Of a DNA stretch of 64,000 bases, positions 38,443-64,000 are shown piece after piece (positions within the stretch are counted from its first letter, which is position 1; every line of letters begins with the position of its first letter). The translations under genes were made by a program, and so were the position numbers. The notes under the pieces are model-generated. The model saw only the letters and a program-made list of their open reading frames with translations. It did no database searches and had not been told where the DNA came from. The stretch lies in IMG/VR virus record IMGVR_UViG_3300035701_000001. One strand, 5' to 3'. The DNA comes from a virus.

Positions 38443-38446
38443 GGCG

Positions 38447-39805: not shown

Positions 39806-39905
39806 GGTGAAAGAGAATGGCAGGATCACCACGAAGAACACGAAGGACACAAAGAATCGGACCGACTGAACTCCGCGATCCCTGCGTTCTCATCGGTGGA
39901 AAAGG
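39638..39905 (+). repeat. REP-like repeat family, locus 5 (A B A' B A B)
   Basis: three degenerate tandem units. Confidence 0.9.
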
Positions 39906-39915
39906 ACGGTGAAAA

Positions 39916-40320: not shown

Positions 40321-40323
40321 AAA

Positions 40324-41489: not shown

Positions 41490-42106
41490 CAATCCAAAAG
41501 AAACCACGAGAAATGGCTGTAGAATGCAAAGCCAATGGATGTTATCGGTTTGCCTCCAACACCCCTGAACGAACCGCATGCGAAGGGGACTGCTGGCTTT
41601 CCAAAGGGGAAGAGACGATTGAAACGGAACCGGACCCCGAAAAAATGGACATCGAGAAGGTACGGAAAAAAACGGCGTTTGTACTGGAGATGGCAGAGAT
41701 ACAGGTTTCGAATGGAGTCTCTCCGAACCTGATGTTTTTCCTGCAGCAGATCGCAACGGCCAACCTCGAATTCTGTGAAGAACTGAAGAAAGCCTACGAT
41801 GCTTCGAAAGAAATCGAACGACAAAGCCAGGAACTCCAGGCCCAGTGCAGAGAGATTTCCCAACACCCAGGTCCCCTGGATACTCCCGAGATGAGGAAGA
41901 AAATCGCTCGGACGACACGCCTGTACGAGGAGTTCCTGCAAAAATACGAGATCCTGGAAGGCATGATCTCGGAGAAGTCGATGACTCGGATCAGCAAGAT
42001 CAACTCGGTCTTCCTCGATTTTTTGTCCAAGGGAGTGATTCCTCCGGTTCCGGAACCTCCTGGCAGAAAACCGGATTCCAAGGATGAGCCGGAGAACGTG
42101 TCGTGA
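41486..42106 (+). CDS. hypothetical protein with N-terminal Cys module and coiled coil
   Basis: ATGA overlap; CKANGCYRFASNTPERTACEGDC. Confidence 0.7.
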   Translation: MTIQKKPREMAVECKANGCYRFASNTPERTACEGDCWLSKGEETIETEPDPEKMDIEKVRKKTAFVLEMAEIQVSNGVSPNLMFFLQQIATANLEFCEELKKAYDASKEIERQSQELQAQCREISQHPGPLDTPEMRKKIARTTRLYEEFLQKYEILEGMISEKSMTRISKINSVFLDFLSKGVIPPVPEPPGRKPDSKDEPENVS

Positions 42107-48185: not shown

Positions 48186-48227
48186 TCCTGTCCCTTTTCA
48201 CAGCAACATTTTCCTGCGAGGTTCTCC

Positions 48228-48491
48228 ATGCAAAAACGGCCTGACATCGAAGCGTTCCAGAAAACGATGTACCGTTCGAACGAACTGTTCCCCCACACGA
48301 AGATCACCAAGGACATCTTGGAGATCCTCGCCTACCTGAAGTCTGTGGAACAACAACGCGATGAAGCCCTGATCGCCGTGCGAGAGGATGGATGCCAGGG
48401 CTATCCTCATGTCTGCGAAGAATGCACGTACAACAACCCTTGCAAGCAGCGAAATGTCCTGGCTGCCGAAGACGAGAGGAACAAGCCATGA
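48228..48491 (+). CDS. hypothetical protein with C-terminal Cys motif
   Basis: SD GAGG; GCQGYPHVCEECTYNNPC. Confidence 0.7.
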   Translation: MQKRPDIEAFQKTMYRSNELFPHTKITKDILEILAYLKSVEQQRDEALIAVREDGCQGYPHVCEECTYNNPCKQRNVLAAEDERNKP

Positions 48492-49105
48492 ACGGACCGG
48501 AAGCCGATACCCTCGTCGGGCTGGAGAAGCTGTTCGAAAGGGTAGAACGAGAGCGCGACGATGCCTTGGCCATCGTGGCGGAGTACAAAGCCGCACGAGA
48601 GGATGCACTCAACCTCCGTGAGGAAGCCCGTCGGGAACGCGATGATCTCCAGGCAAAGCTCACGGAGATATCCGGACTTTTCCGTTCCGAGGGGGCTCTC
48701 CGTATCCTGGAAGAACGGAATCGCCAGGTGACTGCCGAGGGCTGGACCCCAGAACATGACGACGGACATGTCCACGGAGAACTCGCCATCCGTGCCGCCG
48801 AACTGGCGGTGGACGGTACGGATGCCTGGGTAGACGACCCGAACTGTGACAAGGATCCCTGGGGACTTGTCCAGAAACACGGTCACTGCAGTAAAAACGG
48901 AGATCGCAAGCGGGCACTTGCCATTGCAGGGGCACTGCTGGCGGCGGAACTGGACCGCGTTCTTCGCAAAAATATCCATGCAAAAGCCGAGTTCCTCCAC
49001 GAGGAGTACGGTGTGCCCGTGGAACATGCTGTCGGGATGCTCACGGGGAAGAAGCCCATCGGTACTTCCGATGAAGAGAGCGGATCGGGGGAAACCTCCC
49101 GATGA
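48488..49105 (+). CDS. coiled coil plus conserved phage ERxRQ..EGWTPEHDD domain
   Basis: EERNRQVTAEGWTPEHDDGHVHGELA...RALAIAGALLAAELDR. Confidence 0.75.
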   Translation: MNGPEADTLVGLEKLFERVERERDDALAIVAEYKAAREDALNLREEARRERDDLQAKLTEISGLFRSEGALRILEERNRQVTAEGWTPEHDDGHVHGELAIRAAELAVDGTDAWVDDPNCDKDPWGLVQKHGHCSKNGDRKRALAIAGALLAAELDRVLRKNIHAKAEFLHEEYGVPVEHAVGMLTGKKPIGTSDEESGSGETSR

Positions 49106-49494
49106 CTCGTTTTTTCTGGATGGCGGGCTTCCTGACCCTGTGGCTACTGATTCCACAGGTCTGGACCCTGGGATTCGAAGCAGTGTGGTTGTGGCGTATC
49201 TACAAGAAGAACGGGAGGAAAGCGTTCTGGTCCGCCCTGGATGCCTTCCTGCACTATTTGGACAACTACCGGCAGGACTTCGGACTGACCGCTGCACGGC
49301 TCGTCGAGCAGGGCCAGATCGTTCGGCCCGCAACGTTTCTTCCCGATATCACCCCCCTTCACATGCTCCTCTGGCCCCTATACTGGCCCTACGATGTCGC
49401 AACGATTCGCTTCGTCCAGACCGTCTTGCTCGTTGTGCTGGACGAAAATTCTCGAAACAATGAAAACACTCCAACCCATGGAAAATATCCATGA
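49102..49494 (+). CDS. membrane protein
   Basis: ATGA overlap; N-terminal TM. Confidence 0.65.
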   Translation: MTRFFWMAGFLTLWLLIPQVWTLGFEAVWLWRIYKKNGRKAFWSALDAFLHYLDNYRQDFGLTAARLVEQGQIVRPATFLPDITPLHMLLWPLYWPYDVATIRFVQTVLLVVLDENSRNNENTPTHGKYP

Positions 49495-49874
49495 GAACGA
49501 TCACGACACACCACGATAGACACGGGATCAACGACGAGACCGTCATCGAGGTCGATGACAAGGATCCGAACGCGGGGGGAGCCAGCCATCACTACGAGTT
49601 GTCCCGTCCTGTTCCTGGGTGGGGAACCACCAAGACCCACGCTCTCATCGACTTCCAGCATGGTCCCCGCCTGGACTTGAACAGCACTCCCGGCATCCTC
49701 GATGGGGCCATCCTCGCCGTCCTCATCGACCGCTACGAGTGCTTCCAGGCAGGCCCGTTCGCCTGCCGGGAGAACGCCCTCATCCTCACGAAGCTCCAGG
49801 AGGCGATGCACTGGATGAAGCATCGGGCCGATGAGCGCGCCCAGCGCAACGTGCTTGGCAAAAACGAGAAGTAA
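49491..49874 (+). CDS. tad1: Tad1-family anti-Thoeris signalling-molecule sponge
   Basis: GGASHHY; IDFQHGPR; GILD..IL..LIDR..CFQAGPFACRENALILTKLQEAMHWM..R...R..RNVLGKNEK matches the Tad1 sequence pattern as recalled, over the full length. Confidence 0.85.
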   Translation: MRTITTHHDRHGINDETVIEVDDKDPNAGGASHHYELSRPVPGWGTTKTHALIDFQHGPRLDLNSTPGILDGAILAVLIDRYECFQAGPFACRENALILTKLQEAMHWMKHRADERAQRNVLGKNEK

Positions 49875-49877
49875 GAC

Positions 49878-49961
49878 ATGAACCCGATCTGTGAAAAAAG
49901 CGGCTGTTTCCTGTTCTCCGATGGCACCCCCGAGCGGAAGGAATGCGAGGGCAACTGTTAA
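49878..49961 (+). pseudogene. 27-aa Cys module homologous to the N-terminus of 41486 gene, stopped by TAA
   Basis: CEKSGCFLFSDGTPERKECEGNC* vs CKANGCYRFASNTPERTACEGDCW. Confidence 0.5.
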
Positions 49962-50063
49962 CTCGAAGGACACGTATATCCGGTTCTTTTGCCCGAATCT
50001 CTCTGCTTCTTTCCGAATCTACTCCGCGAAGACGTTTCACTCGATATACCCAAGGAGAAGGTA

Positions 50064-50297
50064 ATGAAGATCACCTCTCAAGACAAGATCTCCAATCTCA
50101 TCGCAGTCAAAGACAACAAGATCCTTGGCTATCTACTGGAAATCGATCTGCGTACGTTCCATTATGTTCAACAAATTCCTACCGAAGGAAAAACCATGGA
50201 AGAGGCAGAGATCCGGAGAGGAGTCGCAGACTTTGTTCTCATTGGAGATCGGAAAAAGGCCAACAAGTTTTTCTTGAAGCATTTCAAGGAAAAATGA
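50064..50297 (+). CDS. hypothetical protein
   Basis: SD AAGGAG before ATG 50064. Confidence 0.65.
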   Translation: MKITSQDKISNLIAVKDNKILGYLLEIDLRTFHYVQQIPTEGKTMEEAEIRRGVADFVLIGDRKKANKFFLKHFKEK

Positions 50298-50370
50298 GGA
50301 TGAACTCAATATATTCTCTTAGAGTACCGATGTTGGAAAACAAGTTATCCACATACCAAAGGACAAGTCA

Positions 50371-50862
50371 ATGCCCGATCAACGAGAAGGAGCCTGGGGA
50401 TGGGTCGAGGTGGTCGAACGACGGGTCGTCTTCCCCTCGAACTGGGAAAAAATCTGGTTGCCCGACGGAGAGGTTGTCTCCGTCGCGTACATCAACCAAG
50501 ACACCGAGGAAATCCACTTCGAAGGATCCAGCCTGGGAAGCCTCCGCCAGAGTTGTACCTGCGATGGGCTCTACCTTTCGAAGGACGGGTCCGGACAGGA
50601 TGGATACCGACTCGAACTGGATACCCCCGAGAATCCCATCGGGCACCGGTTCTGGTCCGTCCACAGGGGGGAAAAGACCATTCCCGTGCAGAAAGCCCCT
50701 CCCATACAGGAAGGACTTCCTCCGGACTGCCAGGTTCTCACCCCGGAGGGATGTCGTCTCCTGAACACCCTGCAGCCGGGAGACAAGGTACTCGTCTGGA
50801 ACGATTCCCTCGGAAAATTGGTCGAACGGAACCTTCTGTCCTTCTCCCGGAACGGATCCTAG
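50371..50862 (+). CDS. hypothetical protein ending in a truncated Hint/intein-N-like segment
   Basis: GLPPDCQVLTPEGCRLLNTLQPGDKVLVWNDSLGKLVERNLL. Confidence 0.65.
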   Translation: MPDQREGAWGWVEVVERRVVFPSNWEKIWLPDGEVVSVAYINQDTEEIHFEGSSLGSLRQSCTCDGLYLSKDGSGQDGYRLELDTPENPIGHRFWSVHRGEKTIPVQKAPPIQEGLPPDCQVLTPEGCRLLNTLQPGDKVLVWNDSLGKLVERNLLSFSRNGS

Positions 50863-50884
50863 AAGTTCCAAAGGAGATACGAAG

Positions 50885-51193
50885 ATGACAAGGACAGGAT
50901 TCCTCCTCCTTTATGCCTCGGTGACAGGCATGCTTTTCCTGTTCGCGTTCGGATGGATGGTCCAGGTCTTCTACCGTCTCGGAACCTCTGGATTCACCTT
51001 CGGCCCTGCCTGGGACTACGAGATGGACAAAGCCAGGGAAGGACTCCGCTGGGCTGGATGGACAGCCTTCCTCGGCTTGTTCTGGCCGATGGCCCTGGTT
51101 GCCGCTTTCTTGTTCCTCGTCTGGCAGATTGCAGTTCCTTGCTGGACGGGGCTCGAACGATTCTACCAGACATGGCAGGAGCCTCACCGATGA
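50885..51193 (+). CDS. 2-TM membrane protein
   Basis: SD AAGGAG; two hydrophobic segments. Confidence 0.7.
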   Translation: MTRTGFLLLYASVTGMLFLFAFGWMVQVFYRLGTSGFTFGPAWDYEMDKAREGLRWAGWTAFLGLFWPMALVAAFLFLVWQIAVPCWTGLERFYQTWQEPHR

Positions 51194-51420
51194 AATTCAC
51201 CGCCCGGTTCACCTTGGGTGCCCTCGTTCGCGGTACCGTCCGGCAGAAGCTGAAAGGTTACCTCGCGGGAATCGAGGGAATCTCTTACGACCTGGATGAG
51301 GACAAGGGATTCCTGGAATCCGACTTCCTGCTCACCGTGAGCGGAGACGACGAACAGATCGTGGAGCGGGTCAAGGCGGACATCCGGGACTACTTCGATC
51401 GGGCAAGGAGGGCCGGATGA
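51190..51420 (+). CDS. small hypothetical protein (EDKGFLESDF type)
   Basis: ATGA overlap, SD AGGAG. Confidence 0.7.
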   Translation: MKFTARFTLGALVRGTVRQKLKGYLAGIEGISYDLDEDKGFLESDFLLTVSGDDEQIVERVKADIRDYFDRARRAG

Positions 51421-51737
51421 ACAACAGCATTCGACAGGGCTCTGACCTCGCACGATTCCAGAGAGAAATCTACGACAACAAGGTCAAAAAGGGCTTCAAC
51501 GTCACGGACATTTACCTGGAGTTTTGTTATCTCCACGGAGAAGTGACGGAAGCCTTCGAAAGCTACCTGAAACAAAAACCGAACCAGGGAGAGGAACTCG
51601 CTGATATCGCAATCTTCCTCTTTGGACTCGCAGAGATCCTCCATGTGGATCTCGAAGCTGAGATCCTACGGAAGATGGAGAAGAACAGGAATCGCACCTA
51701 CGAAAAAGTGGGAGACGGCTTTGTCAAAAACGAGTGA
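51417..51737 (+). CDS. MazG-like nucleotide pyrophosphohydrolase
   Basis: LHGEVTEAFE...GEELADIAIFLFGLA...DLEAEILRKMEKNRNR. Confidence 0.85.
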   Translation: MNNSIRQGSDLARFQREIYDNKVKKGFNVTDIYLEFCYLHGEVTEAFESYLKQKPNQGEELADIAIFLFGLAEILHVDLEAEILRKMEKNRNRTYEKVGDGFVKNE

Positions 51738-51753
51738 ATCCGAACCCGAAAAG

Positions 51754-51927
51754 ATGGGGATGAAGAAGAAGGAACCCAACCAGCCGACTTCCCGGTACGG
51801 TCCCTGTCCTGAATGTGGGGATGAATCCTCCCTCATCGTATGGGGCTGGCACGGCATCTACTATGATTTGCAGTGTAAGAACGGCCACGATTGGACCTAC
51901 ACATTTCCAAATAAACAGGAAGGATGA
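51754..51927 (+). CDS. small Zn-ribbon protein
   Basis: CPECG...CKNGHDW. Confidence 0.6.
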   Translation: MGMKKKEPNQPTSRYGPCPECGDESSLIVWGWHGIYYDLQCKNGHDWTYTFPNKQEG

Positions 51928-51953
51928 TTCCGATGGAGACCAGAGGATAAAAG

Positions 51954-52544
51954 ATGAAAAAACACCTTACCTGGGCCGAAATCGCACACAGAGCAGAAAG
52001 TCCCGTTCCAGAAGAAGGGCCGATCCGAACGATCTTCTGGCACTTCTATGGCCAGACGGGGGGTTTCCCGCGCATCCACTCCTGTCCTGCCTTTCTCGCC
52101 ACAGGTGTCATCGACTACGTCCGACAGCGGCATGGCCTGGAGCCAGTCGAAGTCCTCTGCAACGAGTCGCTTACGATGGATCCAGGAGGAACGCTCTGGG
52201 GAGCGGACCATCCTCACCGCACGGCAAGTTTCGGGGAAGGAGAACAGTCTTACCCCCTTTCCATCCACCCCTACCATGCAGAGACTCTGCTTTCCTGGAT
52301 CCCTCAATGCCTGGGCGAACCTGAATACCGGAGAATCTTCGAAGGGGTCCCCTGCCTGAGGGTACCGTCCTTCCCGGCGCAGATCACGGTGTTTCCCCTT
52401 TCGGACTGTGAGGCAATCCTCGCCTTTCTCGATACGCTCCTCCCGGAACACGATGCCATCTGCAAAGAAGCCAAGCATCCTACCCAACGTCTGGGGGGGC
52501 CGAAGATGGAACCACGAATCCAGATGCGGAACCGGAGACCCTGA
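51954..52544 (+). CDS. hypothetical protein
   Basis: SD GAGGA. Confidence 0.7.
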   Translation: MKKHLTWAEIAHRAESPVPEEGPIRTIFWHFYGQTGGFPRIHSCPAFLATGVIDYVRQRHGLEPVEVLCNESLTMDPGGTLWGADHPHRTASFGEGEQSYPLSIHPYHAETLLSWIPQCLGEPEYRRIFEGVPCLRVPSFPAQITVFPLSDCEAILAFLDTLLPEHDAICKEAKHPTQRLGGPKMEPRIQMRNRRP

Positions 52545-52545
52545 A

Positions 52546-53421
52546 ATGCACCCGTACGACCAGAGTCCTTTCGTCGTCCCCCTCTCCCAGGATGACCTCT
52601 CTACCCTCGCACTCCCCCAGGGAAACTACGGAAATGGAGTGCACATCTCCCGCATGAACGGGAAGTGGCACCTCGAACCGGGAACGAATGAATGGAGGCC
52701 CCCTCGCAGGAAACGGAAGAGGGAATCCACCGTCCGGACCCTTGGGAGCCTGATGCGGGACATGCGGTCCGACCCCCAACCCATTCCCCTCGACTTGGAC
52801 GAGGTTGTCCTCTCCCCGCACCCGGCGGATCGCTGGGAGGTGGTCGGGCACTGGAACTTGGCAGGAGCCTGGAGAATCCGGGGAACGGAGGACTGGCCAT
52901 TCGGCGGACAGAAGAAGACCTGGGAAGAAGTCCAGGAAGAACCAAGTCCCAAACTCGTGGCCTGCCTGCCGGACGGAACGGTCTTCGTCCCACGCATCCC
53001 CTCTTTCCAGGAGGCCGAAGCCTGGGTCATCGCCCAGGACCTGTCCGTTCCGGAAACCCAGTGCGACTGCGGAAAGGTCCACTGGGGAGCGGGCAAGGTC
53101 GTTGGACTTCTCGTGAGTAACCTCGGATTCCCTGGCAAGCTGCCGATCCCGAACGTGAACCTGATCGTACAGGAACACTGCCGCAAGAACTTCCATGGCA
53201 AGTGCCCCGAGATGGTCCTGGACTTGCGGATTTGCGCATGGCTCCACTGCGTGGAACCCGGAGGGATGAGCCCCCTCGAATGGATGCGGACACGGGGAGA
53301 TGAAGAAGCGCGTACGGAGGCGGAGCGGATCCTCGAAGCAACCCGGAAGGCACAAGAGGAAAACGAGGCACAGTGGGCTCTTTTGCGCGCCCGACTTTCA
53401 AATGGGAAACCCCTGGCATGA
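52546..53421 (+). CDS. hypothetical protein
   Basis: SD GGAG; CDCG motif. Confidence 0.7.
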   Translation: MHPYDQSPFVVPLSQDDLSTLALPQGNYGNGVHISRMNGKWHLEPGTNEWRPPRRKRKRESTVRTLGSLMRDMRSDPQPIPLDLDEVVLSPHPADRWEVVGHWNLAGAWRIRGTEDWPFGGQKKTWEEVQEEPSPKLVACLPDGTVFVPRIPSFQEAEAWVIAQDLSVPETQCDCGKVHWGAGKVVGLLVSNLGFPGKLPIPNVNLIVQEHCRKNFHGKCPEMVLDLRICAWLHCVEPGGMSPLEWMRTRGDEEARTEAERILEATRKAQEENEAQWALLRARLSNGKPLA

Positions 53422-53440
53422 ACAGGCCAAACTTCTCGGA

Positions 53441-53688
53441 CTCCGCGTCCTCCGCGTCCTCTGCGGTGGAAAAGAAGGGCAGGATCACCACGAAGAACAC
53501 GAAGAACACGAAGGATCGGTCCGAACTCCGCGTTCTCCGCGTTCTCTGCGGTGGAAAAGAAGGGCAGAATCACCACGAAGAACACGAAGAACACGAAGGA
53601 TCGGACGGACCAAACTCCGCGTTCTCCGCGTCCTCTGCGGTGGAAAAGAAGGGCAGGATCACCACGAAGAACACGAAGAACACGAAGA
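53441..53688 (+). repeat. REP-like repeat family, locus 6 (three tandem B+A units, 85-89 bp)
   Basis: CTCCGCG unit starts at 53441, 53526, 53615. Confidence 0.95.
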
Positions 53689-53701
53689 AGGAAACCAAGG
53701 C

Positions 53702-54139
53702 ATGAACGACCTGGAACGACGTGGCAATTTTTGCCGGATCTATCAGTGCTCATCCTGTGGTACGGTACTGGCGGATGGCCCCATCGAAGAAACGTACTGG
53801 CTGACGCGAAAACGGAGAATCCAGGCGTGGGTATTTGGGTTGATCTCCTTCGGAGTCCTGCTTCTTCCTCTTTTTGAAAGAAATCCGAATGGAAAACCTC
53901 CCAAATTCGACAGGCCCCCCTCCTTCTTGATCTGCCCTCGGTGCGGAGCCGACAACGACAAGCTGGAGATGAAGTTCGCGGCTTGGGTCTCGACCTCCCA
54001 CTGGTTTCTGCCCTGGACCTGGGGACGGGGATCCTGGCTCTTGCGGGAGGATTTCCAGAGGCTTCTGACCGGAGAAGACGAGAAGCCGGAAGGAGGAGAA
54101 CTGACCTTGATGAAGGGAGGGAAGAGAAAGTCTGTTTGA
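53702..54139 (+). CDS. membrane protein with two CxxC pairs
   Basis: CSSCG...TM...CPRCG; SD AAGG. Confidence 0.7.
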   Translation: MNDLERRGNFCRIYQCSSCGTVLADGPIEETYWLTRKRRIQAWVFGLISFGVLLLPLFERNPNGKPPKFDRPPSFLICPRCGADNDKLEMKFAAWVSTSHWFLPWTWGRGSWLLREDFQRLLTGEDEKPEGGELTLMKGGKRKSV

Positions 54140-55851: not shown

Positions 55852-56258
55852 TGGCCGAGCTTGCCCTGGCCGCAGGATGGGGACTCCTCCTCGGGGTCCT
55901 GGTGGGCCACTTCTGGCCCCGCCACAAGGATCCATACAACCCATTGCACCCTCCGGTTTGCATCGGACAGGTCTGGAGGGATGCTGAGGGCAACGAGGGT
56001 GCCGTGTACGAGTTCGACTTCGACGATGTCCTGGTGGAATGGAAGAACCCCTCTGACTGGGGGACTTCTGTCAGCCCCTATTCCCCCATGACTCGTCGCA
56101 AGGGGAAACCTGCATCCCTGCGGGGACTATGTACACTCGCACGGGATGAACGGGGAAACGAGCCCGAGTTCCATCGGATGGAGAAAGCTTTACCAGGGGC
56201 TGGTGATCTCACACTCCTCCAGAATCCCGAGAAGAAAAAGCTCCGCGAGGTGCGATGA
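55848..56258 (+). CDS. N-terminally anchored hypothetical protein
   Basis: ATGA overlaps on both sides. Confidence 0.7.
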   Translation: MMAELALAAGWGLLLGVLVGHFWPRHKDPYNPLHPPVCIGQVWRDAEGNEGAVYEFDFDDVLVEWKNPSDWGTSVSPYSPMTRRKGKPASLRGLCTLARDERGNEPEFHRMEKALPGAGDLTLLQNPEKKKLREVR

Positions 56259-56593
56259 TGAATTCCCGTTCTCCCGGCGTCGGAAATCCGCTCACGTTCT
56301 GCTGCTGGAACTGCCGACGGAACAACCGAAAATTCGAGAACCCCATTCCGGATGGCCGAATCGACCAGGTCCTGATCATCGGCAAGACCCGGAAGAACCA
56401 TGCCCTCCTCGGTCGAGAAGCCTCTTCCCCAAGGATGCGGAAAATCCGGGTCCAATACCGCTGCCTGGACTGTGGGCATGTCGGATGGTCTGCGCATGTC
56501 GACCTCGTGAACCGGTTCGAGCAATGGCAGGCAACAATTCCCCAGGAATCCATCCCCTTTCCGAAAAAAGAAGAGAGGAACGAAACTTTATGA
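56255..56593 (+). CDS. basic CxxC protein
   Basis: SD GAGGTG; YRCLDCGHVGW. Confidence 0.65.
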   Translation: MMNSRSPGVGNPLTFCCWNCRRNNRKFENPIPDGRIDQVLIIGKTRKNHALLGREASSPRMRKIRVQYRCLDCGHVGWSAHVDLVNRFEQWQATIPQESIPFPKKEERNETL

Positions 56594-56871
56594 GCCATGA
56601 ACCGCCGAGTGATCTGGACCGTCTGCAGGCATCCCTCCAGGGCATCGAGGAGGCAATCCAGGATCAGACAAAGGTAATTTCAGAGCTTCATCATGGATTC
56701 CATACCGCTCTTGCCGAGGAATACCTGGAACGTGCGGTGAGTGCCGAAAGGAAGTGGAAGGAACTCGATGCCAAGCTGCGGAACCTGGCCGGGAAGTGGA
56801 AGAAAGCAAACTGCAACACATCCTTCGATGTCTGTGCTTGTGAATTGCTCTCCTTGTTGGACAAGTCATGA
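56590..56871 (+). CDS. coiled-coil hypothetical protein
   Basis: ATGA overlap. Confidence 0.65.
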   Translation: MSHEPPSDLDRLQASLQGIEEAIQDQTKVISELHHGFHTALAEEYLERAVSAERKWKELDAKLRNLAGKWKKANCNTSFDVCACELLSLLDKS

Positions 56872-57164
56872 CCTGTGAAAACTGGACCCCAAGCCTCTGG
56901 CGTACTCTCATCGGCGAATACCTGGAGGTCAAGCCAAGTCTCGTCGCAAACCGGATGACACCCAACGACATGACGGCACGGCAACAGGTGGGCCTCTACC
57001 TCAAGTCCTTCGGAGGCAACGCCCTCGTGACGTTTCGCTCCCTGCCTCGTGACGTGCAACGGGGATACCAGAAGCAGTGGCCCGAGTTCGAGGGGCTCCT
57101 GGAGCAGTGCATCCAGGAAGGACCCGGAAATCCGATGCCGCCTCCTGTCGATTCGGAGATCTGA
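56868..57164 (+). CDS. hypothetical protein
   Basis: ATGA overlap. Confidence 0.65.
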   Translation: MTCENWTPSLWRTLIGEYLEVKPSLVANRMTPNDMTARQQVGLYLKSFGGNALVTFRSLPRDVQRGYQKQWPEFEGLLEQCIQEGPGNPMPPPVDSEI

Positions 57165-57197
57165 CAGAGAGATTCACAAAAATGCAAGCAGAACATC

Positions 57198-57226
57198 TTG
57201 AAACCGGACGTGTCCTCGGGTAGAGG
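57198..57226 (+). promoter_or_regulatory. Promoter/operator copy 5
   Basis: TTGAAAC CGGAC GTGTCC TCGGG TAGAGG. Confidence 0.55.
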
Positions 57227-57324
57227 AGGGTGGAAACGCAACTTCCACGGAGGAACAGGCCATGTACAGACCCGGATGCGTGAGACAGGCTCCGATGATG
57301 CCCGCGATAGGCATGGGGGACTCG

Positions 57325-57564
57325 ATGAAGAGTGCCAACCTCGCGAAGGTCGAGAACGGCTTCATCGTGACCCTCTGCTACCCGAAGAAGTTCGAGCCTT
57401 CTGCCGAAGAGCGAAAGCTGATGGAGAAGTACGCCGGATCATGCGAGGGGCCTCCGCTCGGACTCGGAGAACTCGACTTCGGAAACCAGATGGTCGAAGA
57501 GACCCATGTGGCCAAGACCTGGGACGAGGCGGTGCAGATCCTGGCCACCTGCATGGCCACCTGA
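57325..57564 (+). CDS. hypothetical protein (KVENGFIVT type)
   Basis: SD GGGGGA before ATG 57325. Confidence 0.6.
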   Translation: MKSANLAKVENGFIVTLCYPKKFEPSAEERKLMEKYAGSCEGPPLGLGELDFGNQMVEETHVAKTWDEAVQILATCMAT

Positions 57565-57578
57565 CAAGGCGAGCCGAT

Positions 57579-57838
57579 CTCCGCGTTTTCCGCGTTCTTT
57601 GCGGTAGAAAAGAACGGAGGGATCACCACGAAGAACACGAAGAACACGAAGGATCGGATGGGCCGGACTCCGCGTTCTCCGCGTTCTCAGCAGTAGATTT
57701 CCTCTCCGGATTTCTACCACGAAGAACACGAAGGACATGAAGGAAGACGGAGGACCCTCTGATCTCCGCGTTCTCCGCGTTCTCAGCGGTAGAAAAGACT
57801 GAAAGAACCACCACGGAGGACGCGGAGGACACGGAGAG
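57579..57838 (+). repeat. REP-like repeat family, locus 7 (B A B A B A')
   Basis: three tandem units; linker GGAAGACGGAGGACC shared with locus 4. Confidence 0.9.
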
Positions 57839-57883
57839 CACACCAGTCCAAACGGTTTCTCGACCTCTTGCCCATGAAACGGT

Positions 57884-57912
57884 TCGACACAGCCTGTGTC
57901 ACAGGGTAGAAG
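57884..57912 (+). promoter_or_regulatory. Promoter/operator copy 6, upstream of Family B array
   Basis: TCGACAC AGCCT GTGTCA CAGGG TAGAAG. Confidence 0.65.
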
Positions 57913-57932
57913 AGGGGAGAGGTTTCTCTCCA

Positions 57933-58502
57933 ATGTCCAAAACGAAGGACAAGACCCAGAAAAACAAGGTCCGAAAGGACAAGACCCGGTTCGTCTCCGT
58001 GCTCTTGCACCCTCCCAAGGGAGATCCACAGGGACTCTTGAGGGAAGGACCACTCGGGGCTCGGCCCCCCATGGCCTGGCTCTCGAAGACGAGCGAACGA
58101 AAGCACGAGGAGTGCCTGGATTGCGATCCCTGCTTCGAACTGCACCGGGAAGGCTATAGCCATTGCACGGTGTGTGAAGAGGAATGGCCGTGCAGCCAGG
58201 TGGGTAAGGTCGAGGTTCCTGCAAGCAAACAGTGGAAGCCCTGCGAGGGGTGCCCCCCCGAGAAAGAACGGTGGAGACCCTGTGGAGGGTGCCGGGGAGA
58301 TGCCATCGTGCTTGCCTGGGAAGGCCAGGTCATCGAGGGGGGCTGTACGTGGCTCACCATGAGATACCCATCGAGAATGTTCAGCACCCTTTACGTAGAT
58401 GTTGTCTTCATGCTCAAAGAGCAAACCGATTTCAGTTCCCTTCGCGCGGTGGGAGAGGTTGTCCTGCTCGATGCGAACGGCAAGGAGGTGTTCGGTGACT
58501 GA
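57933..58502 (+). CDS. Family B paralog 1 (Cys-rich insert)
   Basis: VLLHPPKGDPQGLLREGPLGARPP...IVLAWEG...LLDANGKE. Confidence 0.85.
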   Translation: MSKTKDKTQKNKVRKDKTRFVSVLLHPPKGDPQGLLREGPLGARPPMAWLSKTSERKHEECLDCDPCFELHREGYSHCTVCEEEWPCSQVGKVEVPASKQWKPCEGCPPEKERWRPCGGCRGDAIVLAWEGQVIEGGCTWLTMRYPSRMFSTLYVDVVFMLKEQTDFSSLRAVGEVVLLDANGKEVFGD

Positions 58503-58917
58503 CCCCTCCGCCATCCTGCTCGTTGCCACATCCGAACACGGCAAAGCCCTGTTGCGAGAGGGGCCGTGTGGAGCACGCCCCCCGATGGTCGTGCTGGGAG
58601 GGAAGGGCCGAGACGGTCCGGCACGGTGGCTTCCACGCGACCAGGCAGACTGGACAACGACCAATCGGAGATGTCCCATGTTGGGGCGGGATTTCGGCGG
58701 GGGCCATCGTGCCGTTACCGCTCTTGTTCTCGCCTGGGAGGGGGAAAACGTCCCCGAAGGCTGGGACCGCCTCACCCGTGTCGCGCCGAAGGTCTATCTG
58801 TCCCGTCTGAACTTCTTTCCCGACGGTGCGCTCGCCTGTGCGCGTGCGTACGAACGGGCCGGATTCGGGACCGTCGTCTGCCTGGGAACGGACGGCAAGG
58901 AGATGTCCGATGGCTGA
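58495..58917 (+). CDS. Family B paralog 2
   Basis: GTG start; ILLVAT...GPCGARPP...LVLAWEG...LGTDGKE. Confidence 0.85.
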   Translation: MTDPSAILLVATSEHGKALLREGPCGARPPMVVLGGKGRDGPARWLPRDQADWTTTNRRCPMLGRDFGGGHRAVTALVLAWEGENVPEGWDRLTRVAPKVYLSRLNFFPDGALACARAYERAGFGTVVCLGTDGKEMSDG

Positions 58918-59443
58918 CCCCTCCGCCATCCTGCTCGTCCCTACACCCGAGTATACCGAGGTTCTCTTCCGTACTGGCCCCTGTGGAGCCCGACCTCCAC
59001 TGGTCGGTCGCTTTGCGGTCGCAGGGACCGCGAAGTGCCCTCACTGCCAGAAAACGCTTCGCTACAGCCCCCCTCCAACCGAGCAGACCTCCGATCTCTG
59101 GTGTTGCGATTCCTGCGACCAGTCGTGGTACGAACGGCAGATCTACGACTTCTCGGAGCATCGCTGGGAAACCTACCGGGGCTGGAAACCGGTTCCCATG
59201 CAGTGGGATCGCTGTGCACTGGTCCTTGCCTGGGAAGGCAAACCGTTGGAAGAAGGCCTTTTCCGTGCAGTCCGTGCACTGGGAAAGGACCATGGAAGGC
59301 TCGAACGGATCCAGGCGTACCTGAACTGCATCGAAATGAGGGGGATTCCCGATCTCCTGGAAACCTGCCAGTACCATAGGCTTGATACGTTGGGCACGTT
59401 GATCCACCTCGACGCGGAAGGCAAGGAGGTCTCCGGTGGCTGA
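58910..59443 (+). CDS. Family B paralog 3 (CPHC..CCDSC insert)
   Basis: family motifs. Confidence 0.85.
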   Translation: MADPSAILLVPTPEYTEVLFRTGPCGARPPLVGRFAVAGTAKCPHCQKTLRYSPPPTEQTSDLWCCDSCDQSWYERQIYDFSEHRWETYRGWKPVPMQWDRCALVLAWEGKPLEEGLFRAVRALGKDHGRLERIQAYLNCIEMRGIPDLLETCQYHRLDTLGTLIHLDAEGKEVSGG

Positions 59444-59861
59444 CGTCCATGCCCTCTTGCTCGTCCCCCCCAAGAGAGATCCGAAGGGCCTGCTCCGCGA
59501 AGGACCCTGCGGGGCAAGGCCTCCCAATGTCCACTGGACGACCTGTCCGGTGCACGGGCGCAGTGCCCTGGTCTCCAACGACAAACTTCCACCCGCACCT
59601 TGCCCTGAGTACGCCTGCGGACCCATCCACACCCACGAGGCCCTCGTGCTTGCGTGGGACGGACAGCCGGTGGACGAGGGAATCGACCGGGCCGTCCGGG
59701 TTTTGGGTTTTCACCGGAGCCATGTCTACAAGATCGTGATGGCCCATCTGGGACTGCTGAAAGGCCCCGAGAACCTGCTGCGCTGGTTGCGGGACGATTC
59801 GGTGAATCTCGGTACGCTCATCCGGCTCGACGAAGATGGAAAGGAGATCTCCGATAGCTGA
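59436..59861 (+). CDS. Family B paralog 4 (CPVHG insert)
   Basis: family motifs. Confidence 0.85.
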   Translation: MADVHALLLVPPKRDPKGLLREGPCGARPPNVHWTTCPVHGRSALVSNDKLPPAPCPEYACGPIHTHEALVLAWDGQPVDEGIDRAVRVLGFHRSHVYKIVMAHLGLLKGPENLLRWLRDDSVNLGTLIRLDEDGKEISDS

Positions 59862-60270
59862 CCCCTTCGCCGTCCTGTTCGTTCCCACCGAAGAACATCG
59901 GGAAGCCCTGCTGCACCGTGGCCCGTGCGGAGCCCGGCCGCCGATGGCACAAATCAACTCTCTTCTCGTTGGTGACAAATGGGTGCCGATCTGGGTCGAG
60001 GTGACGTATGAGTATAGACCTGGATTCGCACTCGTTCTTGCCTGGGAAGACAAGTCCGTTCTCGAAGGGCTGGAACGACTGCACCACCATGCAACGGAGT
60101 TCTCCCTCGCTGAGAAATGCCGATGGAAATGGAACCTGAAGGCCCCTTCGGACTGGATGGTCCCTGACCAGGTTTTCGAAGTCGTACAAGTCGCCCGGCT
60201 TGCCGAGGAAATGGGGCTTGGAACCGTTGTCTGCCTCGATGCGGAAGGCAAGGAGATCTCCCATGGCTGA
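59854..60270 (+). CDS. Family B paralog 5 (ATA in the start position)
   Basis: AAGGAG-N7-ATAGCTGAC aligns with ATGGCTGAC/GTGGCTGAC of siblings. Confidence 0.7.
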   Translation: MADPFAVLFVPTEEHREALLHRGPCGARPPMAQINSLLVGDKWVPIWVEVTYEYRPGFALVLAWEDKSVLEGLERLHHHATEFSLAEKCRWKWNLKAPSDWMVPDQVFEVVQVARLAEEMGLGTVVCLDAEGKEISHG

Positions 60271-60697
60271 TCTCTTCGCCGTCCTGCTCGTCCCCTCTCC
60301 CGAGCACCTGGAACTCACGCTCGATGGTCCCTACGGAGCCCGGCCCCCAACGGCCCGTGCCTTCACGTGCCCCGTGCACGGTCGGGGCCCCTGGTACGTC
60401 CACAACTACGCGCTGAGCACACGCTGCTGCAGTTCCGTGAAGGCAGATTCCACCTGTACGAAAGATTGTCCTCCCACCGTCGGCCTCGTGCTGGCCTGGG
60501 ACGGAAAACCCATCGAGATGGGCATGTTCTATGCAGTACGCGCTCTCGAAAAAGCCATCGGTAGACGCCACGAAATTTTTGTGTCCTGGCACTGTGTCGA
60601 CATGGACAACGTGAGGAATCTGCGACATGACTGCCTTGGCCATGAACTTGGAAAGTTCCTCAGTCTAAACGCCGATGGACGGGAGATGAACCCATGA
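60263..60697 (+). CDS. Family B paralog 6 (CPVHG insert)
   Basis: family motifs. Confidence 0.85.
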   Translation: MADLFAVLLVPSPEHLELTLDGPYGARPPTARAFTCPVHGRGPWYVHNYALSTRCCSSVKADSTCTKDCPPTVGLVLAWDGKPIEMGMFYAVRALEKAIGRRHEIFVSWHCVDMDNVRNLRHDCLGHELGKFLSLNADGREMNP

Positions 60698-61764
60698 GCG
60701 ATGTGGGAACTCCCATTCTACTGACGCGAGACGCCTTCCGAACTGCCGTGTTCGAGCGGGACCAGTACCGGTGTGTGCTCTGCGAAAAACCAGCCGCCGA
60801 TGCCCATCATATCCTCGACCGTCGTCTCTGGCCCGACGAGGGCTACTACCTGGAAAACGGGGCCTCGGTCTGCCCCGAGCACCACATCCTATGTGAACAG
60901 ACCGTAGTCTCCTGCGAGGAACTCCGGGAACGGTGTGGTATTACCCACGCCATCCTTCCTCCGCACCTCTACGATGACGGGGACTCCCACTATGACAAGT
61001 GGGGCAACCCGATCCTCTCGAACGGAATGCGGATGCGGGGGGAACTGTTCTTCGACGAGTCCGTCCAGAAAGTCCTCGTGGAAGGAAGGGTTCTCGGCCT
61101 CTTCACCCAGTACGTGAAATATCCGAGGACGTACCACCTCCCCTGGAGTCCTGGAGTCACAAAAGACGACCGGGTGCAGACCGATCTTTCGGCCTTCAAG
61201 GGGCAGGAGGTGGTGGCAACCGTCAAGATGGACGGGGAAAACACGACTTTTTACCGGAACTATATCCACGCCCGGTCCCTGGAGTACCGGCCACGGGTAG
61301 ACCGCGACCGGGTGAAAGCCCTCCATGCGGTCCTTTCCCACGAGATCCCTTATGGATGGCGCATTTGCGGCGAAAACCTCTGGGCAGAGCACAGCATCCG
61401 CTACGAGCACCTTCCGTCCATCTTTCAGGTCTTCTCGGTCTGGGACGATCAAAACCACTGCCTTCCGTGGGACGAAACGGTGGAATGGGTAGCCATGCTC
61501 GATCTACATATGGTTCCAGTGCTGTACCGAGGCCCTTGGGATGAAGCCCGTGTCCGGTCGCTCTATGTCCCGACGTTTCAAGACGAAGCGTGCGAGGGGT
61601 TCGTGATTCGAGTCACTGCAGGGTTCCGCTATGGGGAATTCCGCCGGAAAGTCGCCAAGTACGTCCGGGAGGGGCATGTCCGGACACAGGCCCATTGGAC
61701 CCGTTCCATCCGACCCAATGGTCTTCGGATCGATACTGAAGGAAAGGAGACTCCCCATGTCTGA
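60694..61764 (+). CDS. HNH endonuclease - ATP-dependent RNA ligase fusion
   Basis: N-term RDQYRCVLC...AHHI...NGASVCPEHH; C-term KYPRTYHLPWS, KMDGEN (adenylation motif), CGENL, EGFVIR, AKYVR. Confidence 0.85.
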   Translation: MSDVGTPILLTRDAFRTAVFERDQYRCVLCEKPAADAHHILDRRLWPDEGYYLENGASVCPEHHILCEQTVVSCEELRERCGITHAILPPHLYDDGDSHYDKWGNPILSNGMRMRGELFFDESVQKVLVEGRVLGLFTQYVKYPRTYHLPWSPGVTKDDRVQTDLSAFKGQEVVATVKMDGENTTFYRNYIHARSLEYRPRVDRDRVKALHAVLSHEIPYGWRICGENLWAEHSIRYEHLPSIFQVFSVWDDQNHCLPWDETVEWVAMLDLHMVPVLYRGPWDEARVRSLYVPTFQDEACEGFVIRVTAGFRYGEFRRKVAKYVREGHVRTQAHWTRSIRPNGLRIDTEGKETPHV

Positions 61765-62152
61765 TGTGTGGACCATCCTGCTCATTCCAAAGAAAGAGGA
61801 CCCGTTTGGAATCCTTCGGAGAGGACCGTTCGGAGCCCAGCCCCCGACTCTGATGAACTTCTCATCCAACCCGACCTCGAACAAGTCGGGGAGATGGGAC
61901 TGCTCGGTTCACATTCCAGATCAGCCAGGTTGGAAATCTCCACCGGAAGCACTCGTCCTCGCCCACGAAAGGGGTGTGGTCGAGGAGGGGGTTGTCTGGC
62001 TCGCAATGCGGTGTCCACCGATTGTCTACGGAAACCTGTACGGCCCGATCTTCGGCATGCTCAAGGAAGGATGGGTGTACGAACCGCTTGAGGAGGTGGG
62101 TACGGTCCTCCTGCTCGACCGGGAAGGGAAGGAGATCCAGCCGAGAACATGA
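61757..62152 (+). CDS. Family B paralog 7
   Basis: ILLIPKKEDPFGILRRGPFGAQPP...LVLAHE...LLDREGKE. Confidence 0.85.
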   Translation: MSDVWTILLIPKKEDPFGILRRGPFGAQPPTLMNFSSNPTSNKSGRWDCSVHIPDQPGWKSPPEALVLAHERGVVEEGVVWLAMRCPPIVYGNLYGPIFGMLKEGWVYEPLEEVGTVLLLDREGKEIQPRT

Positions 62153-62189
62153 AACGGGAGATCCTGTTCGAATTCTTGGGAGGTGTCCG

Positions 62190-62687
62190 ATGGGTGACGG
62201 GAAGGCGATTCTGCTGATTCCAGCCAAGGGAGACCCGTTGGATCTGCTGGCAGAAGAGGGACCCTGTGGGGCTCTTCCGCCCAGAGCATGGTGCCACCGG
62301 ACTCCTGCTCGGGTCCACGAAGCATGCCAGGACTGCGATGATCTGCGTGATCTGCACCAGGGAGAGGACGGAGACTGGTGCTTCCACTGCACGGAGTGCC
62401 ACGAGCGATGGCCCTGTCTGGAGGCTGGTAAGGAGGTCGAGCCTCCCTCCGAGACATGGGAACCGGGTGGACGGTTTCCCGATGCCCTCGTGCTGGCCTG
62501 GGATGGAAAAACACTGGGTTACGGCTGCCTGTGGCTCGCAGAAAGAGCCGGTCACGTGGTGCCTGGCTTGATCCGAGGCAAGGTTGACTTCCTGCTCTCA
62601 GGTATCGGAGACATGCCGGGATTCCTCGGGGAGTACGGAACCGTCGTCCTACTGGATGTGGAAGGCAAGGAGGTTTCCCGTGGTTGA
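62190..62687 (+). CDS. Family B paralog 8 (insert shared with B1)
   Basis: SD GGAGG; HEACQDCD...HCTECHERWPC. Confidence 0.85.
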   Translation: MGDGKAILLIPAKGDPLDLLAEEGPCGALPPRAWCHRTPARVHEACQDCDDLRDLHQGEDGDWCFHCTECHERWPCLEAGKEVEPPSETWEPGGRFPDALVLAWDGKTLGYGCLWLAERAGHVVPGLIRGKVDFLLSGIGDMPGFLGEYGTVVLLDVEGKEVSRG

Positions 62688-63111
62688 TGTGCACTCGGTC
62701 CTGCTTGTTCCGTCTCCCGAGCATGTCAAAGCACTACTGTGCTGTGGACCTTGCGGAGCCCGTCCTCCAATGGCACACCGTGCTGTACGCCCCATGGGTG
62801 CAGACTTCGAAATGTTCTGGTGTGGAGCACAACTCACTGAGACTCCGTGGGGAACTGGATTTGTTCTTGTCCTTGCATGGGAAGGGGAGACGGTTCCCGA
62901 AGGAATGGATCGTGTGACTCGCTGCGTTGAAAAGAAGGGACAAATGGTGGATTCAGAGCACGAAAAGCACAACAACCTTTTTGCTGCAAACTGGATACAT
63001 CAAGCGAATTTTTCGGATTTGAACAACAAGAAAAGCGGTGTACCTGCATTATTGCTCCAGTTTGGAACCCTCGTCTTTCTCGATGCGAACGGCAAGGAGA
63101 TTCAGCCATGA
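62680..63111 (+). CDS. Family B paralog 9
   Basis: GTG start; family motifs. Confidence 0.85.
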   Translation: MVDVHSVLLVPSPEHVKALLCCGPCGARPPMAHRAVRPMGADFEMFWCGAQLTETPWGTGFVLVLAWEGETVPEGMDRVTRCVEKKGQMVDSEHEKHNNLFAANWIHQANFSDLNNKKSGVPALLLQFGTLVFLDANGKEIQP

Positions 63112-63518
63112 CGAAACGGCTTCTCTGTGCCATTCTGCTGATTCCCGCCCTGGAAGATCCGCTGGGACTTCTCCAGGAAGGCCCCTGTGGAGCCAGGCCT
63201 CCCCTGGCAATGAAGCCGGACTGCGAAATCCACGGGGCCCAGTGGATCCTCGGCAAGGAAGTTCCCTGCTGCCAGAACGCAGGACACAGCATTCTCATGG
63301 GAAACTGCGTGGAGGCCCTTGTACTCGTCTGGGACGGCAAACCGGTCCGCGAAGGGTGCGGGAAGCTGGAAGAAGCCTGGATGCCCTATGTGGCCGTCCG
63401 CTGGATTGACCAGGTTCTCCTGGAGATCCTGCAGGGAACCTCACGCAAGTCTCTCGGGGAAGATTGCCCCGGAACGCTCGTGTTCCTCGATGCCGAAAGG
63501 CGGGAGATCACTCCATGA
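63108..63518 (+). CDS. Family B paralog 10 (CEIHG insert)
   Basis: family motifs. Confidence 0.85.
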   Translation: MTKRLLCAILLIPALEDPLGLLQEGPCGARPPLAMKPDCEIHGAQWILGKEVPCCQNAGHSILMGNCVEALVLVWDGKPVREGCGKLEEAWMPYVAVRWIDQVLLEILQGTSRKSLGEDCPGTLVFLDAERREITP

Positions 63519-63925
63519 CTACTACTCCTGTCCACGCCGTTCTGCTCACCCCGGAGAAGGGGGACCCTCTCGGCCTGCTCCACGGGGAACCGTGCGGAGC
63601 CAAACCCCCCATCGCGTTTCGCGTGGACTGCAAGATCCACGGGGTTGGATGGTTCGCGGCCAACGAGAAACCCTGCTGCCTGAACGCGGGAATCCACCTC
63701 ATGGCAGGAGAGTCCACGGAAGCTCTGGTCCTCGTCTGGAAGGGAGAACCCGTTCCGATGGGGATGGACCGGGTACGTCGCTGTGGGCTCGACATCGAGG
63801 ACGACGAGGTCCTTCGGAACGCAGAAGATTGGGCGACCATCGGAATCATGGAGGGGACCGTCGTTCTGCTCGATGTACGGGGGACCAAAGGCCCTCCCAC
63901 TCACTGCAGCCGAACAGAACCGTAG
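63515..63925 (+). CDS. Family B paralog 11 (CKIHG insert, close to B10)
   Basis: family motifs. Confidence 0.85.
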   Translation: MTTTPVHAVLLTPEKGDPLGLLHGEPCGAKPPIAFRVDCKIHGVGWFAANEKPCCLNAGIHLMAGESTEALVLVWKGEPVPMGMDRVRRCGLDIEDDEVLRNAEDWATIGIMEGTVVLLDVRGTKGPPTHCSRTEP

Positions 63926-63937
63926 AAGGTAAATTCC

Positions 63938-64000
63938 ATGAAGAAGACCTCTGCTTCGACAATGAAACGGTCCGCTCTCCTCCTGGTCCCGGATCCGGGC
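63938..64000 (+). CDS. probable Family B paralog 12, 5' partial
   Basis: MKKTSASTMKRSALLLVPDPG matches the family ALLLVP start. Confidence 0.55.
   Translation, partial: MKKTSASTMKRSALLLVPDPG

Follow-up and report, generated by a model that had tools for sequence, protein, structure and literature searches.

Gene Content and Extent of the Array

The 64,000-nucleotide (nt) stretch of viral DNA analyzed here (IMG/VR record IMGVR_UViG_3300035701_000001, hereafter the window) carries, at positions 57,933–64,000 of the + strand, a tandem array of small paralogous genes that is referred to as Family B. All twelve paralogs belong to a single operon, translationally coupled, in the genome of a large uncultured phage. 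A family profile hidden Markov model (HMM) run on the window matched exactly 11 open reading frames (ORFs) on the + strand (E 3.5e-26 to 2.7e-36), with no further Family B ORF in the rest of the 64 kb. These 11 are the complete genes of the array (57933–63925), their limits being set from Shine-Dalgarno (SD) sequences together with start codons, and their products are 131–189 amino acids (aa) long. A twelfth gene begins with the ATG at 63938 and runs past the end of the window; its full product (P0049, 155 aa) is encoded on a metagenome contig, L042, that matches window positions 63221–64000 at 100% identity and extends beyond the window. The next three genes on L042 are not Family B genes (HMM E ≥ 0.055), so that the array has exactly 12 members, which is the largest number of Family B copies seen in one array. 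Its single interruption is a gene for an HNH-RNA ligase (60694–61764).

A preliminary description of this DNA, made from its letters alone, had listed 11 complete members and one partial member of about 130–190 aa and had looked to sequence downstream of the window for the full count; the HMM bears out the former, and L042 supplies the latter by completing member 12. That the products have no hydrophobic leader and are soluble, as had also been stated, agrees with the absence of any leader or transmembrane segment (maximum 19-residue Kyte-Doolittle mean 0.63–1.65). The second large paralog expansion that had been described in the same 64 kb, Family A, is real as well, and Family B is indeed unrelated to it (hhalign probability 0.3%). 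Family A occupies window positions 5711–33175, where 42 copies of a 44-nt motif are found at ~470-nt spacing, and has a hydrophobic N-terminal leader.

The features of the array are as follows, where insert 1 denotes the variable region directly after the conserved motif GPCGARPP.

57846–57932, + strand: leader with a purine-rich SD sequence (GGGGAGAGG) ahead of the first gene (direct sequence reading)
57933–58502, + strand: member 1, 189 aa, HMM E 3.9e-32
58495–58917, + strand: member 2, 140 aa, GTG start, 8-nt overlap with member 1, one Cys in insert 1
58910–59443, + strand: member 3, 177 aa, zinc-ribbon-like insert 1 (CPHC...CDSC)
59436–59861, + strand: member 4, 141 aa, the protein used for the structure model
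59836–60270, + strand: member 5, 144 aa if the start is the ATG at 59836, insert 1 at 59916–60027
60263–60697, + strand: member 6, 144 aa, GPYGARPP
60694–61764, + strand: HNH-RNA ligase, not a member, 356 aa, PF09414, KMDGEN motif
61757–62152, + strand: member 7, 131 aa, GPFGAQPP, LVLAH
62190–62687, + strand: member 8, 165 aa, net charge -14, double CxxC insert 1 as in member 1
62680–63111, + strand: member 9, 143 aa, GTG start
63108–63518, + strand: member 10, 136 aa, short C-x-I-H-G...CC insert 1
63515–63925, + strand: member 11, 136 aa, EPCGAKPP
63938–64000, + strand: start of member 12, the last of the array, 155 aa in full (P0049)

Member 1 has a Lys-rich N-terminal extension, the motif variant GPLGARPP and a long Cys-rich insert 1 (10 Cys, CxxC...CxxC), while the zinc-ribbon Pfam matches to the insert of member 3 are weak and below cut-off. 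In member 11 the C-terminal GKE motif has decayed to GTKG, and there is no overlap with the next gene. Nine of the 11 window members carry a net negative charge (pI 4.7–6.9), and pairwise identity to member 4 is 31–40% across the paralogs.

Translational Coupling and the Interrupting RNA Ligase Gene

Neighboring genes overlap by 4 or 8 nt at nine of the 12 junctions, including both sides of the RNA ligase gene, the remaining three being a 37-nt gap before member 8, a 12-nt gap before member 12 and the uncertain start at the member 4/5 junction. The hexamer AAGGAG lies 7–9 nt ahead of the start codon and sits within the conserved C-terminal Gly-Lys-Glu codons (GGC AAG GAG) of the preceding gene, so that these codons (GGCAAGGAG) double as the ribosome-binding site of the following gene. 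The RNA ligase, which is unrelated to Family B, likewise terminates in Gly-Lys-Glu with the AAGGAG hexamer, indicating that the GKE "protein motif" is here at least partly a coupling signal at the nucleotide level. The constant scaffold with variable inserts that had been proposed from the sequence is confirmed, with the modification that its GKE[IV] part is at the same time the SD sequence of the next gene. A five-member array on other contigs (L001–L004) has matching overlaps of 8, 8, 4 and 4 nt.

Member 5 departs from this arrangement. Its canonical SD-spaced start is ATA in the window (59854–59856) but ATG in the orthologue on L014, a contig of a sister phage from another sample (window 59836–59861 compared with L014:1146–1171), and its sole in-frame ATG (59836) is located upstream of the SD sequence. 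Judged from these codons, member 5 may be poorly translated or started at a non-canonical codon. A scan of the array for terminators revealed no excess of terminator-like sites (8 found versus 6.9 expected).

The interrupting gene encodes an N-terminal HNH-type motif followed by a C-terminal RNA ligase domain, the latter matching PF09414 with E 2.2e-30 (106.5 bits against a cut-off of 27) and containing the KxDG motif as KMDGEN. It also matches phrog_24030 (E 1.4e-128) and HNH PHROGs, and its nearest DNA match is the RNA ligase gene of the Caulobacter jumbo phage CcrSC (64% nt identity). The gene is absent from the matching position in L014. It is the sole non-member gene of the operon, in which no toxin domain was found, and neither Rfam families nor tRNA genes turned up when the window was scanned for them.

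Conserved Core, Variable Regions and Predicted Fold

Four sequence blocks are conserved family-wide, namely A-[VI]-L-L-[VI]-P, G-D-P-x-G-L-L-x-E-G-P-C-G-A-R-P-P, A-L-V-L-A-W-D-G-x-P-V-x-E-G-x-D-R and L-G-T-x-V-L-L-D-A-x-G-R-E-V. The motifs quoted in the preliminary description are real, but looser than written, since GPCGARPP is exact in only 6 of 12 members and the tryptophan of LVLAW is a histidine once. The residues that are invariant among the window members comprise only M, L, P, G, A and V.

Between these blocks lie two variable regions, insert 1 with 22–81 residues and region 2 with 24–52 residues, which follows EG-x-DR and is predicted to be helical in the structure model. Insert 1 contains a single Trp in 125 of 130 family members and differs widely in its cysteines and histidines, 57 of the 130 having four or more Cys and His and 33 no more than one. 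In the window it is present as a long double CxxC form (members 1, 3, and 8), a short C-x-[VI]-H-G...CC form (members 4, 6, 10, and 11), and a Cys-poor form with 0–1 Cys (members 2, 5, 7, and 9). Two CxxC/CxxH knuckles are visible in members 1, 3, and 8, and all matches to zinc-ribbon profiles are below cut-off. From these patterns, insert 1 is predicted to be Zn-ribbon-like in about half of the family.

An AlphaFold2 model of member 4, built from a 130-sequence alignment, reached a mean predicted local distance difference test score (pLDDT) of 83.8 and a predicted template modeling score of 0.77, with the five models ranging from 79.8 to 83.8 in pLDDT, and consists of five strands and three helices. 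The products are accordingly modeled as soluble, mostly acidic alpha/beta proteins. Searches with the member 4 model against the PDB using Foldseek gave a best E of 0.59 with a template modeling (TM) score of 0.14, and against BFVD a best E of 0.25. VIA-align over 48,161 chains gave a best Z of 3.0 with none ≥5, where models without a match typically reach 7–8. In the ESM Atlas the TM score was at most 0.34 and feature searches brought no usable match, and a sequence-profile search of the PDB ended at a best E of 0.38. No known neighbor was thus found for the modeled fold, although such a lack of a match is not proof of a new fold.

A Predicted Homodimer Built From the Conserved Motifs

A controlled prediction with two copies of the chain yielded an interface score (ipSAE) of 0.56 (0.55–0.58 between runs), compared to 0.00 for the best of three controls. 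Of the proteins solved as homo-pairs, 20 of 30 attained this ipSAE mark, compared to one of 23 solved as single chains, counts that are only a rough benchmark because a custom alignment was used for Family B. Contacts agreed by at least 86% between the runs, with a partner pLDDT of at least 72. Family B is therefore predicted to form a symmetric homodimer via the invariant GPCGARPP and LVLAWDG motifs. In the model the interface comprises residues 23–32 (GPCGARPP-N-V), 47–49, V71, W74, D75, 79–82, 84–85, and 88, and coincides with the invariant motifs of the family, including the two just named, so that the invariant residues are predicted to form the hydrophobic core and the homodimer interface. 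The predicted location of the motifs at the interface would provide a rationale for why they are frozen while the remainder of the protein varies.

The preliminary description had raised the question of whether the cysteine of GPCGARPP lies in a pocket. This is not what the model suggests, where C25 packs against V71, W74, and P30 of the other chain. Such a role in dimer packing fits with the replacement of the cysteine by L, Y, or F in three of the 11 window members of the alignment, and speaks against C25 as a pocket nucleophile. The closest contact across the modeled dimer axis is R28–R28′, which is ringed by the conserved residues W74, D75, E81, and R85.

Evolution of the Array

In a tree with 151 other family members (FastTree, 126 columns, poorly resolved), the window members fall into at least four groups, {1, 7, 8}, {2, 3, 5, 9}, {4, 6}, and {10, 11}, which are mixed with sequences from other contigs. 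One recent duplication burst is therefore unsupported, with the caveat of the poor resolution of the tree. Recent gene conversion was likewise rejected as a major force, since the synonymous codons shared at identical residues exceed expectation by only 19% (925 observed versus 778 expected), with no outlier pair. The paralogs thus appear, from these comparisons, to be old, and the array to be neither the product of a recent burst nor homogenized by conversion.

Contig L014 encodes orthologues of members 4, 5, and 6 with 86–89% nucleotide identity. Comparison of the two loci yields a ratio of non-synonymous to synonymous substitution rates (dN/dS) of 0.064/0.449 = 0.14 for member 4, and dN 0 with dS 0.15–0.30 for the C-terminal 60 codons of member 5, which indicates purifying selection. 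By contrast, the variable regions have changed in two different ways. In member 5 the similarity stops precisely at the end of the GPCGARPP codons (59915) and resumes with the ALVLAW codons (60028); the 112 nt lying in between in the window are replaced by 127 unrelated nt in L014, whose product thus has a different insert 1. For member 6, dN is 0–0.016 and dS 0.42–0.75 over the first 60 codons, whereas region 2 (columns 91–120) has dN 0.53 and dS 0.33 and has thus evolved ~30-fold faster than the scaffold (Fisher p 1.6e-6 for the C-terminal 54 versus the first 90 alignment columns). The variable regions therefore evolve both by rapid amino-acid replacement and by replacement of whole inserts between conserved anchors.

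The gene content differs as well. On L014 an unrelated 183-aa gene replaces members 1–3, and a 73-aa gene is found at the position of the RNA ligase gene. According to the gene tables of two Logan sister contigs (SRR11719878, SRR11721627), one of them has two gene calls, of 77 and 55 aa, instead of member 9, which is probably disrupted there, while in the second a 108-aa gene follows member 4 instead of member 5. Taken together, these comparisons suggest that the frame is frozen, that the two variable regions turn over fast, and that the membership of the array is fluid between strains.

Identity and Distribution of the Family

Family B has no match in Pfam, PHROGs, NCBIfam, or PADLOC, which agrees with the preliminary description, where no family had been recognized. 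Among nine window members scanned, Pfam gave no family for eight and only sub-threshold zinc-ribbon-type matches in the insert of one, and in 130 relatives no Pfam family was matched by more than two sequences, such matches again being zinc-ribbon models in the insert. No SUKH/Imm Pfam match was found among the window members and these 130 relatives. PHROGs v4 contained no Family B match at E below 0.007, and NCBIfam 20 and PADLOC-DB 2 no meaningful match, the zinc-ribbon matches in NCBIfam being below cut-off.

The family is not private to this genome. When 1.84 billion cluster representatives, with clusters defined at 50% identity, were searched exhaustively with the profile, 823 metagenome clusters were recovered at E ≤ 1e-3, of which 376 reached E ≤ 1e-10, and all clusters with a source label are metagenomic and unnamed or "hypothetical." What is unusual here is the copy number, since the other loci (~10–20 kb fetched around each match) hold one or two copies, with the exception of five in L001. 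A search of viral contigs recovered two related loci, and one carrier is an 80-kb IMG/VR contig that CheckV rates as 24% complete, i.e. a jumbo phage. By contrast, tblastn of four family members against 50,697 GenBank phage records gave no match. The family is thus abundant but found only on phage-like contigs, so far from uncultured phages alone. A degenerate DNA pattern for EGPCGARPP matched 27 times in 185,579 species genomes, with no family member among the matches by HMM, and since the pattern covers ~1/3 of the members this is weak evidence that the family may be missing from bacterial chromosomes and prophages.

The G+C content of the family-carrying loci ranges from 43% to 70%. On the long contigs available, the family gene is surrounded by phage genes; the neighbors are baseplate J, sheath initiator, Dit-like, and HNH genes in L007, DNA polymerase A, a PDDEXK nuclease, and a DUF5906 primase-helicase-like protein in L011, and an SNF2 helicase, DNA polymerase A, and a methyltransferase in L013. 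Fused forms (P0137, P0019, L007:10405–11319) carry extra N- or C-terminal domains of 40–175 residues without a Pfam match, the L007 fusion lying directly after a stand-alone member; a dedicated search for longer fused forms found none. On the phage-like contig L006, which has a single Family B gene, a Volactin (actin-like) Pfam match is located at 16111–17130.

Repeat Element Upstream of the Array and Other Features of the Window

At the head of the operon lies a repeat of family D10, whose copies in the window are distributed as follows.

57579–57840, strand not assigned: three tandem copies of a 75–90-nt imperfect inverted repeat at the operon head (family D10, alignment A3)
4825–4917: other D10 copy (repeat search)
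11668–11744: other D10 copy (repeat search)
24687–24763: other D10 copy (repeat search)
39688–39858: other D10 copies, with starts at 39688 and 39782 (repeat search)
53432–53691: other D10 copies (repeat search)

The family is found at seven places elsewhere in the window, and all copies share one orientation. The arms are composed of 9-nt sub-repeats (CTCCGCGTT / CACGAAGAA) and enclose a conserved loop, GGTAGAAAAG. Differences between the arms are G/A changes, which result in G-U pairs on the minus strand but C-A mismatches on the plus strand, so that the minus-strand folds of the repeat (-38 to -47.6 kcal/mol, z -4.8 to -6.4) are more stable than those on the plus strand (-27 to -43 kcal/mol), where one copy is unfolded (z +1.8 versus -5.0). 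No sigma-70-like site was found in 57100–64000, and the stem is not followed by a U-tract on either strand and has no Rfam match. The element had been taken for "promoter copy 6," a putative role that its place at the operon head would allow but that these properties do not support; it may also represent a putative protein-binding, processing, or regulatory cassette, the last resembling the promoter-early stem-loop (PeSL) cassettes discussed below.

Outside the array, PHROG scans of ten neighboring ORFs, including upstream ones, found nothing except a 462-aa protein (35574–36962) with a helix-turn-helix (HTH) domain (HTH_3, E 1.3e-6) and a phrog_3740 region, which is the only recognizable regulator among the ORFs scanned. 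Pfam searches on large ORFs elsewhere in the window were empty. The AT skew is strongly positive (0.13–0.25 in 2-kb windows) at 36000–42000, 48000–54000, and 56000–58000 and ~0 elsewhere, and most large ORFs in these AT-skewed stretches have no Pfam or PHROG match.

Functional Interpretation

The interpretation that we favor, with a probability of about 0.42, is that the array represents a repertoire of dimeric host-binding or counter-defense proteins with putative targets. The twelve proteins would be co-produced from the operon in similar amounts and would bind or inhibit host proteins stoichiometrically, either during host takeover or as a means of counter-defense, such that each paralog would have its own target or target variant. 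Small, soluble, mostly acidic products without an invariant catalytic residue fit arms-race binders better than enzymes or regulators. A repertoire of such binders is further favored by the combination of a constant core and self-association surface with fast-changing or swapped exposed regions, as well as by the coupled co-expression, the phage-only distribution in accessory or replication regions, and the presence of an RNA-repair enzyme in the operon. The insert swap in member 5 and region 2 of member 6 suggest that the variable parts behave as specificity determinants. Net negative charge is common among protein-binding phage inhibitors, and T4 uses RNA ligases of the class found here to undo host tRNA cleavage.

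Several points weigh against a host-binding repertoire. PADLOC links no member to any defense system, the dimer is itself a prediction, and the usual one or two copies per locus elsewhere indicate that the basic function needs no repertoire. The dN/dS of region 2 in member 6 (~1.6) is not significantly above 1 (p 0.52), so that relaxed constraint may also account for it. Furthermore, there are invariant polar residues, namely D (GDP), R (GARPP), D (AWDG), E/R (EG-x-DR), and D and E (LLD-x-G-x-E), which could serve as a conserved ligand site and not as a plain interface. In a rival reading, Family B would be a small-molecule binder that acts as a signal sponge, or an enzyme, with the Arg, Trp, and acidic residues at the two-fold axis as the ligand pocket and the inserts as decoration. 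The modeled R28–R28′ contact, with W74, D75, E81, and R85 around it, can be read in this way, since facing like charges usually require a bridging anion, and the phage proteins known to sponge up immune signals are small oligomers whose pockets lie at the interfaces. We consider this explanation unlikely, because the fold searches brought up no solved sponge or enzyme (best VIA Z 3.0, best Foldseek E 0.59), the cysteine is not conserved, and twelve diverged copies with insert swapping and fast surfaces are unexpected for a ligand sponge.

Dimeric nucleic-acid-binding regulators, in which the Zn-ribbon-like inserts would read DNA or RNA, so that different transcripts of the phage or its host would be controlled by different paralogs, are rather unlikely. 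The CxxC...CxxC or C-x-[VI]-H-G...CC inserts of seven of the 11 window members, the 57 of 130 relatives with at least four Cys and His, the predicted symmetric dimer, and the weak sub-threshold zinc-ribbon matches would all suit such a role; yet nine of the 11 window members are acidic, with charges down to -14, Pfam scans of members and relatives detected no HTH or other DNA-binding domain, and at most one Cys or His in insert 1 of 33 of the 130, together with at most one Cys in four window members, would make the putative reading head optional. That the products are instead associated with the virion or ejected as internal proteins, entering the host together with the DNA for immediate action there, is suggested by the family genes of L007 and L008, which lie at most 3 kb from baseplate and sheath-initiator genes. 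However, the family gene is part of replication modules in L011 and L013, the window array sits with an RNA ligase gene and far from any recognizable structural gene, and no signal or processing motif is present, which renders this highly unlikely. Finally, the lost canonical ATG of member 5, the apparently split member 9 of a sister contig, and the decayed C-terminus of member 11 are what would be expected of selectively neutral duplication debris of a hyperplastic region, in which most copies are functionless. This can hardly be reconciled with 12 of 12 open frames, with ancient paralogs (31–40% identity; 925 versus 778 synonymous codons) that retain the scaffold, or with orthologues that evolve at dN/dS 0.14 and with dN 0 across 60 codons.

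If the favored repertoire of host-binding proteins exists, an extension of it would be that the predicted dimer interface is shared universally and permits free pairing, giving up to 78 homo- and heterodimers and hence a combinatorial, antibody-like repertoire of bivalent binders. We regard this as quite unlikely, but if true, each heterodimer would bring the variable inserts of two different paralogs next to each other at the two-fold axis, and a bacterial virus would possess a combinatorial repertoire that is renewed through insert swapping between conserved anchors.

Significance and Comparison With Known Systems

Large phages contain many arrays of small uncharacterized genes, and for almost none of these has a fold, an oligomeric state, or a mode of evolution been defined. 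Family B represents a new and abundant family of phage proteins that is absent from the catalogues searched and is here expanded to twelve diverged copies; a family definition, a confident fold model, a testable dimer rationale for the motifs, and direct evidence for turnover of the variable regions are now available for it. If the members inhibit host proteins, the array offers twelve natural variants for finding targets, possibly including new defense systems of uncultured bacteria, and the scaffold could be used as a small dimeric binder framework.

Two functional analogies can be drawn outside the phages. Poxvirus ankyrin/F-box proteins and the multigene families of African swine fever virus are viral paralog arrays that combine constant partner-binding parts with variable target-binding parts and act in anti-defense. 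Family B shares with them the large viral genome and the paralog array with a constant and a variable part, but realm, fold, and scale are unrelated, and the constant partner of Family B is only a predicted self-association. Poly-immunity loci, reportedly described by Zhang, Iyer and Aravind, are tandem SUKH/Imm-type immunity paralogs of bacterial polymorphic-toxin systems. Like Family B they consist of tandem small, soluble, and strongly diverged paralogs without catalytic residues, which are thought to neutralize varied protein toxins by binding them; however, they are bacterial, toxin-adjacent, and of known folds, whereas Family B is found on phage contigs, has no adjacent toxin, and shows no fold match.

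Among phage systems, the T4 gene tifA, which encodes an inhibitor of ToxN, undergoes tandem amplification under defense pressure (Srikant et al., 2022; PMC9391042), which is a precedent for the interpretation favored here. Both cases involve a small phage gene that is multiplied head-to-tail, and the tifA product binds and inhibits a host protein. By contrast to the recent, identical copies of tifA, which act by dosage, the Family B copies are 31–40% identical, do not make up one recent clade, and are without strong gene conversion, which makes the array a diversified repertoire and not an accordion that raises dosage.

In T4-type phages, hyperplastic regions contain small accessory genes that are flanked by PeSL cassettes, each a strong sigma-70-like promoter with a stem-loop terminator, and shuffled by recombination (Arbiol et al., 2010; PMC2839356). 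The Family B array differs from them in that its genes are paralogs of one family rather than unrelated ORFans, that the one exchange observed breaks inside the coding sequence, at scaffold codons, and not in intergenic cassettes, and that its stem-loop has neither the sigma-70-like promoter nor the U-tract of a PeSL cassette. On the other hand, both are blocks of small, non-essential-looking genes of no assigned function in a large phage, both have a repeated stem-loop at the head of gene blocks, and in both, close relatives differ in the genes they carry owing to insertion, deletion, and replacement, as is seen when the window is compared with L014 and the sister contigs. Of the phenomena described so far, hyperplastic regions come closest to the Family B array.

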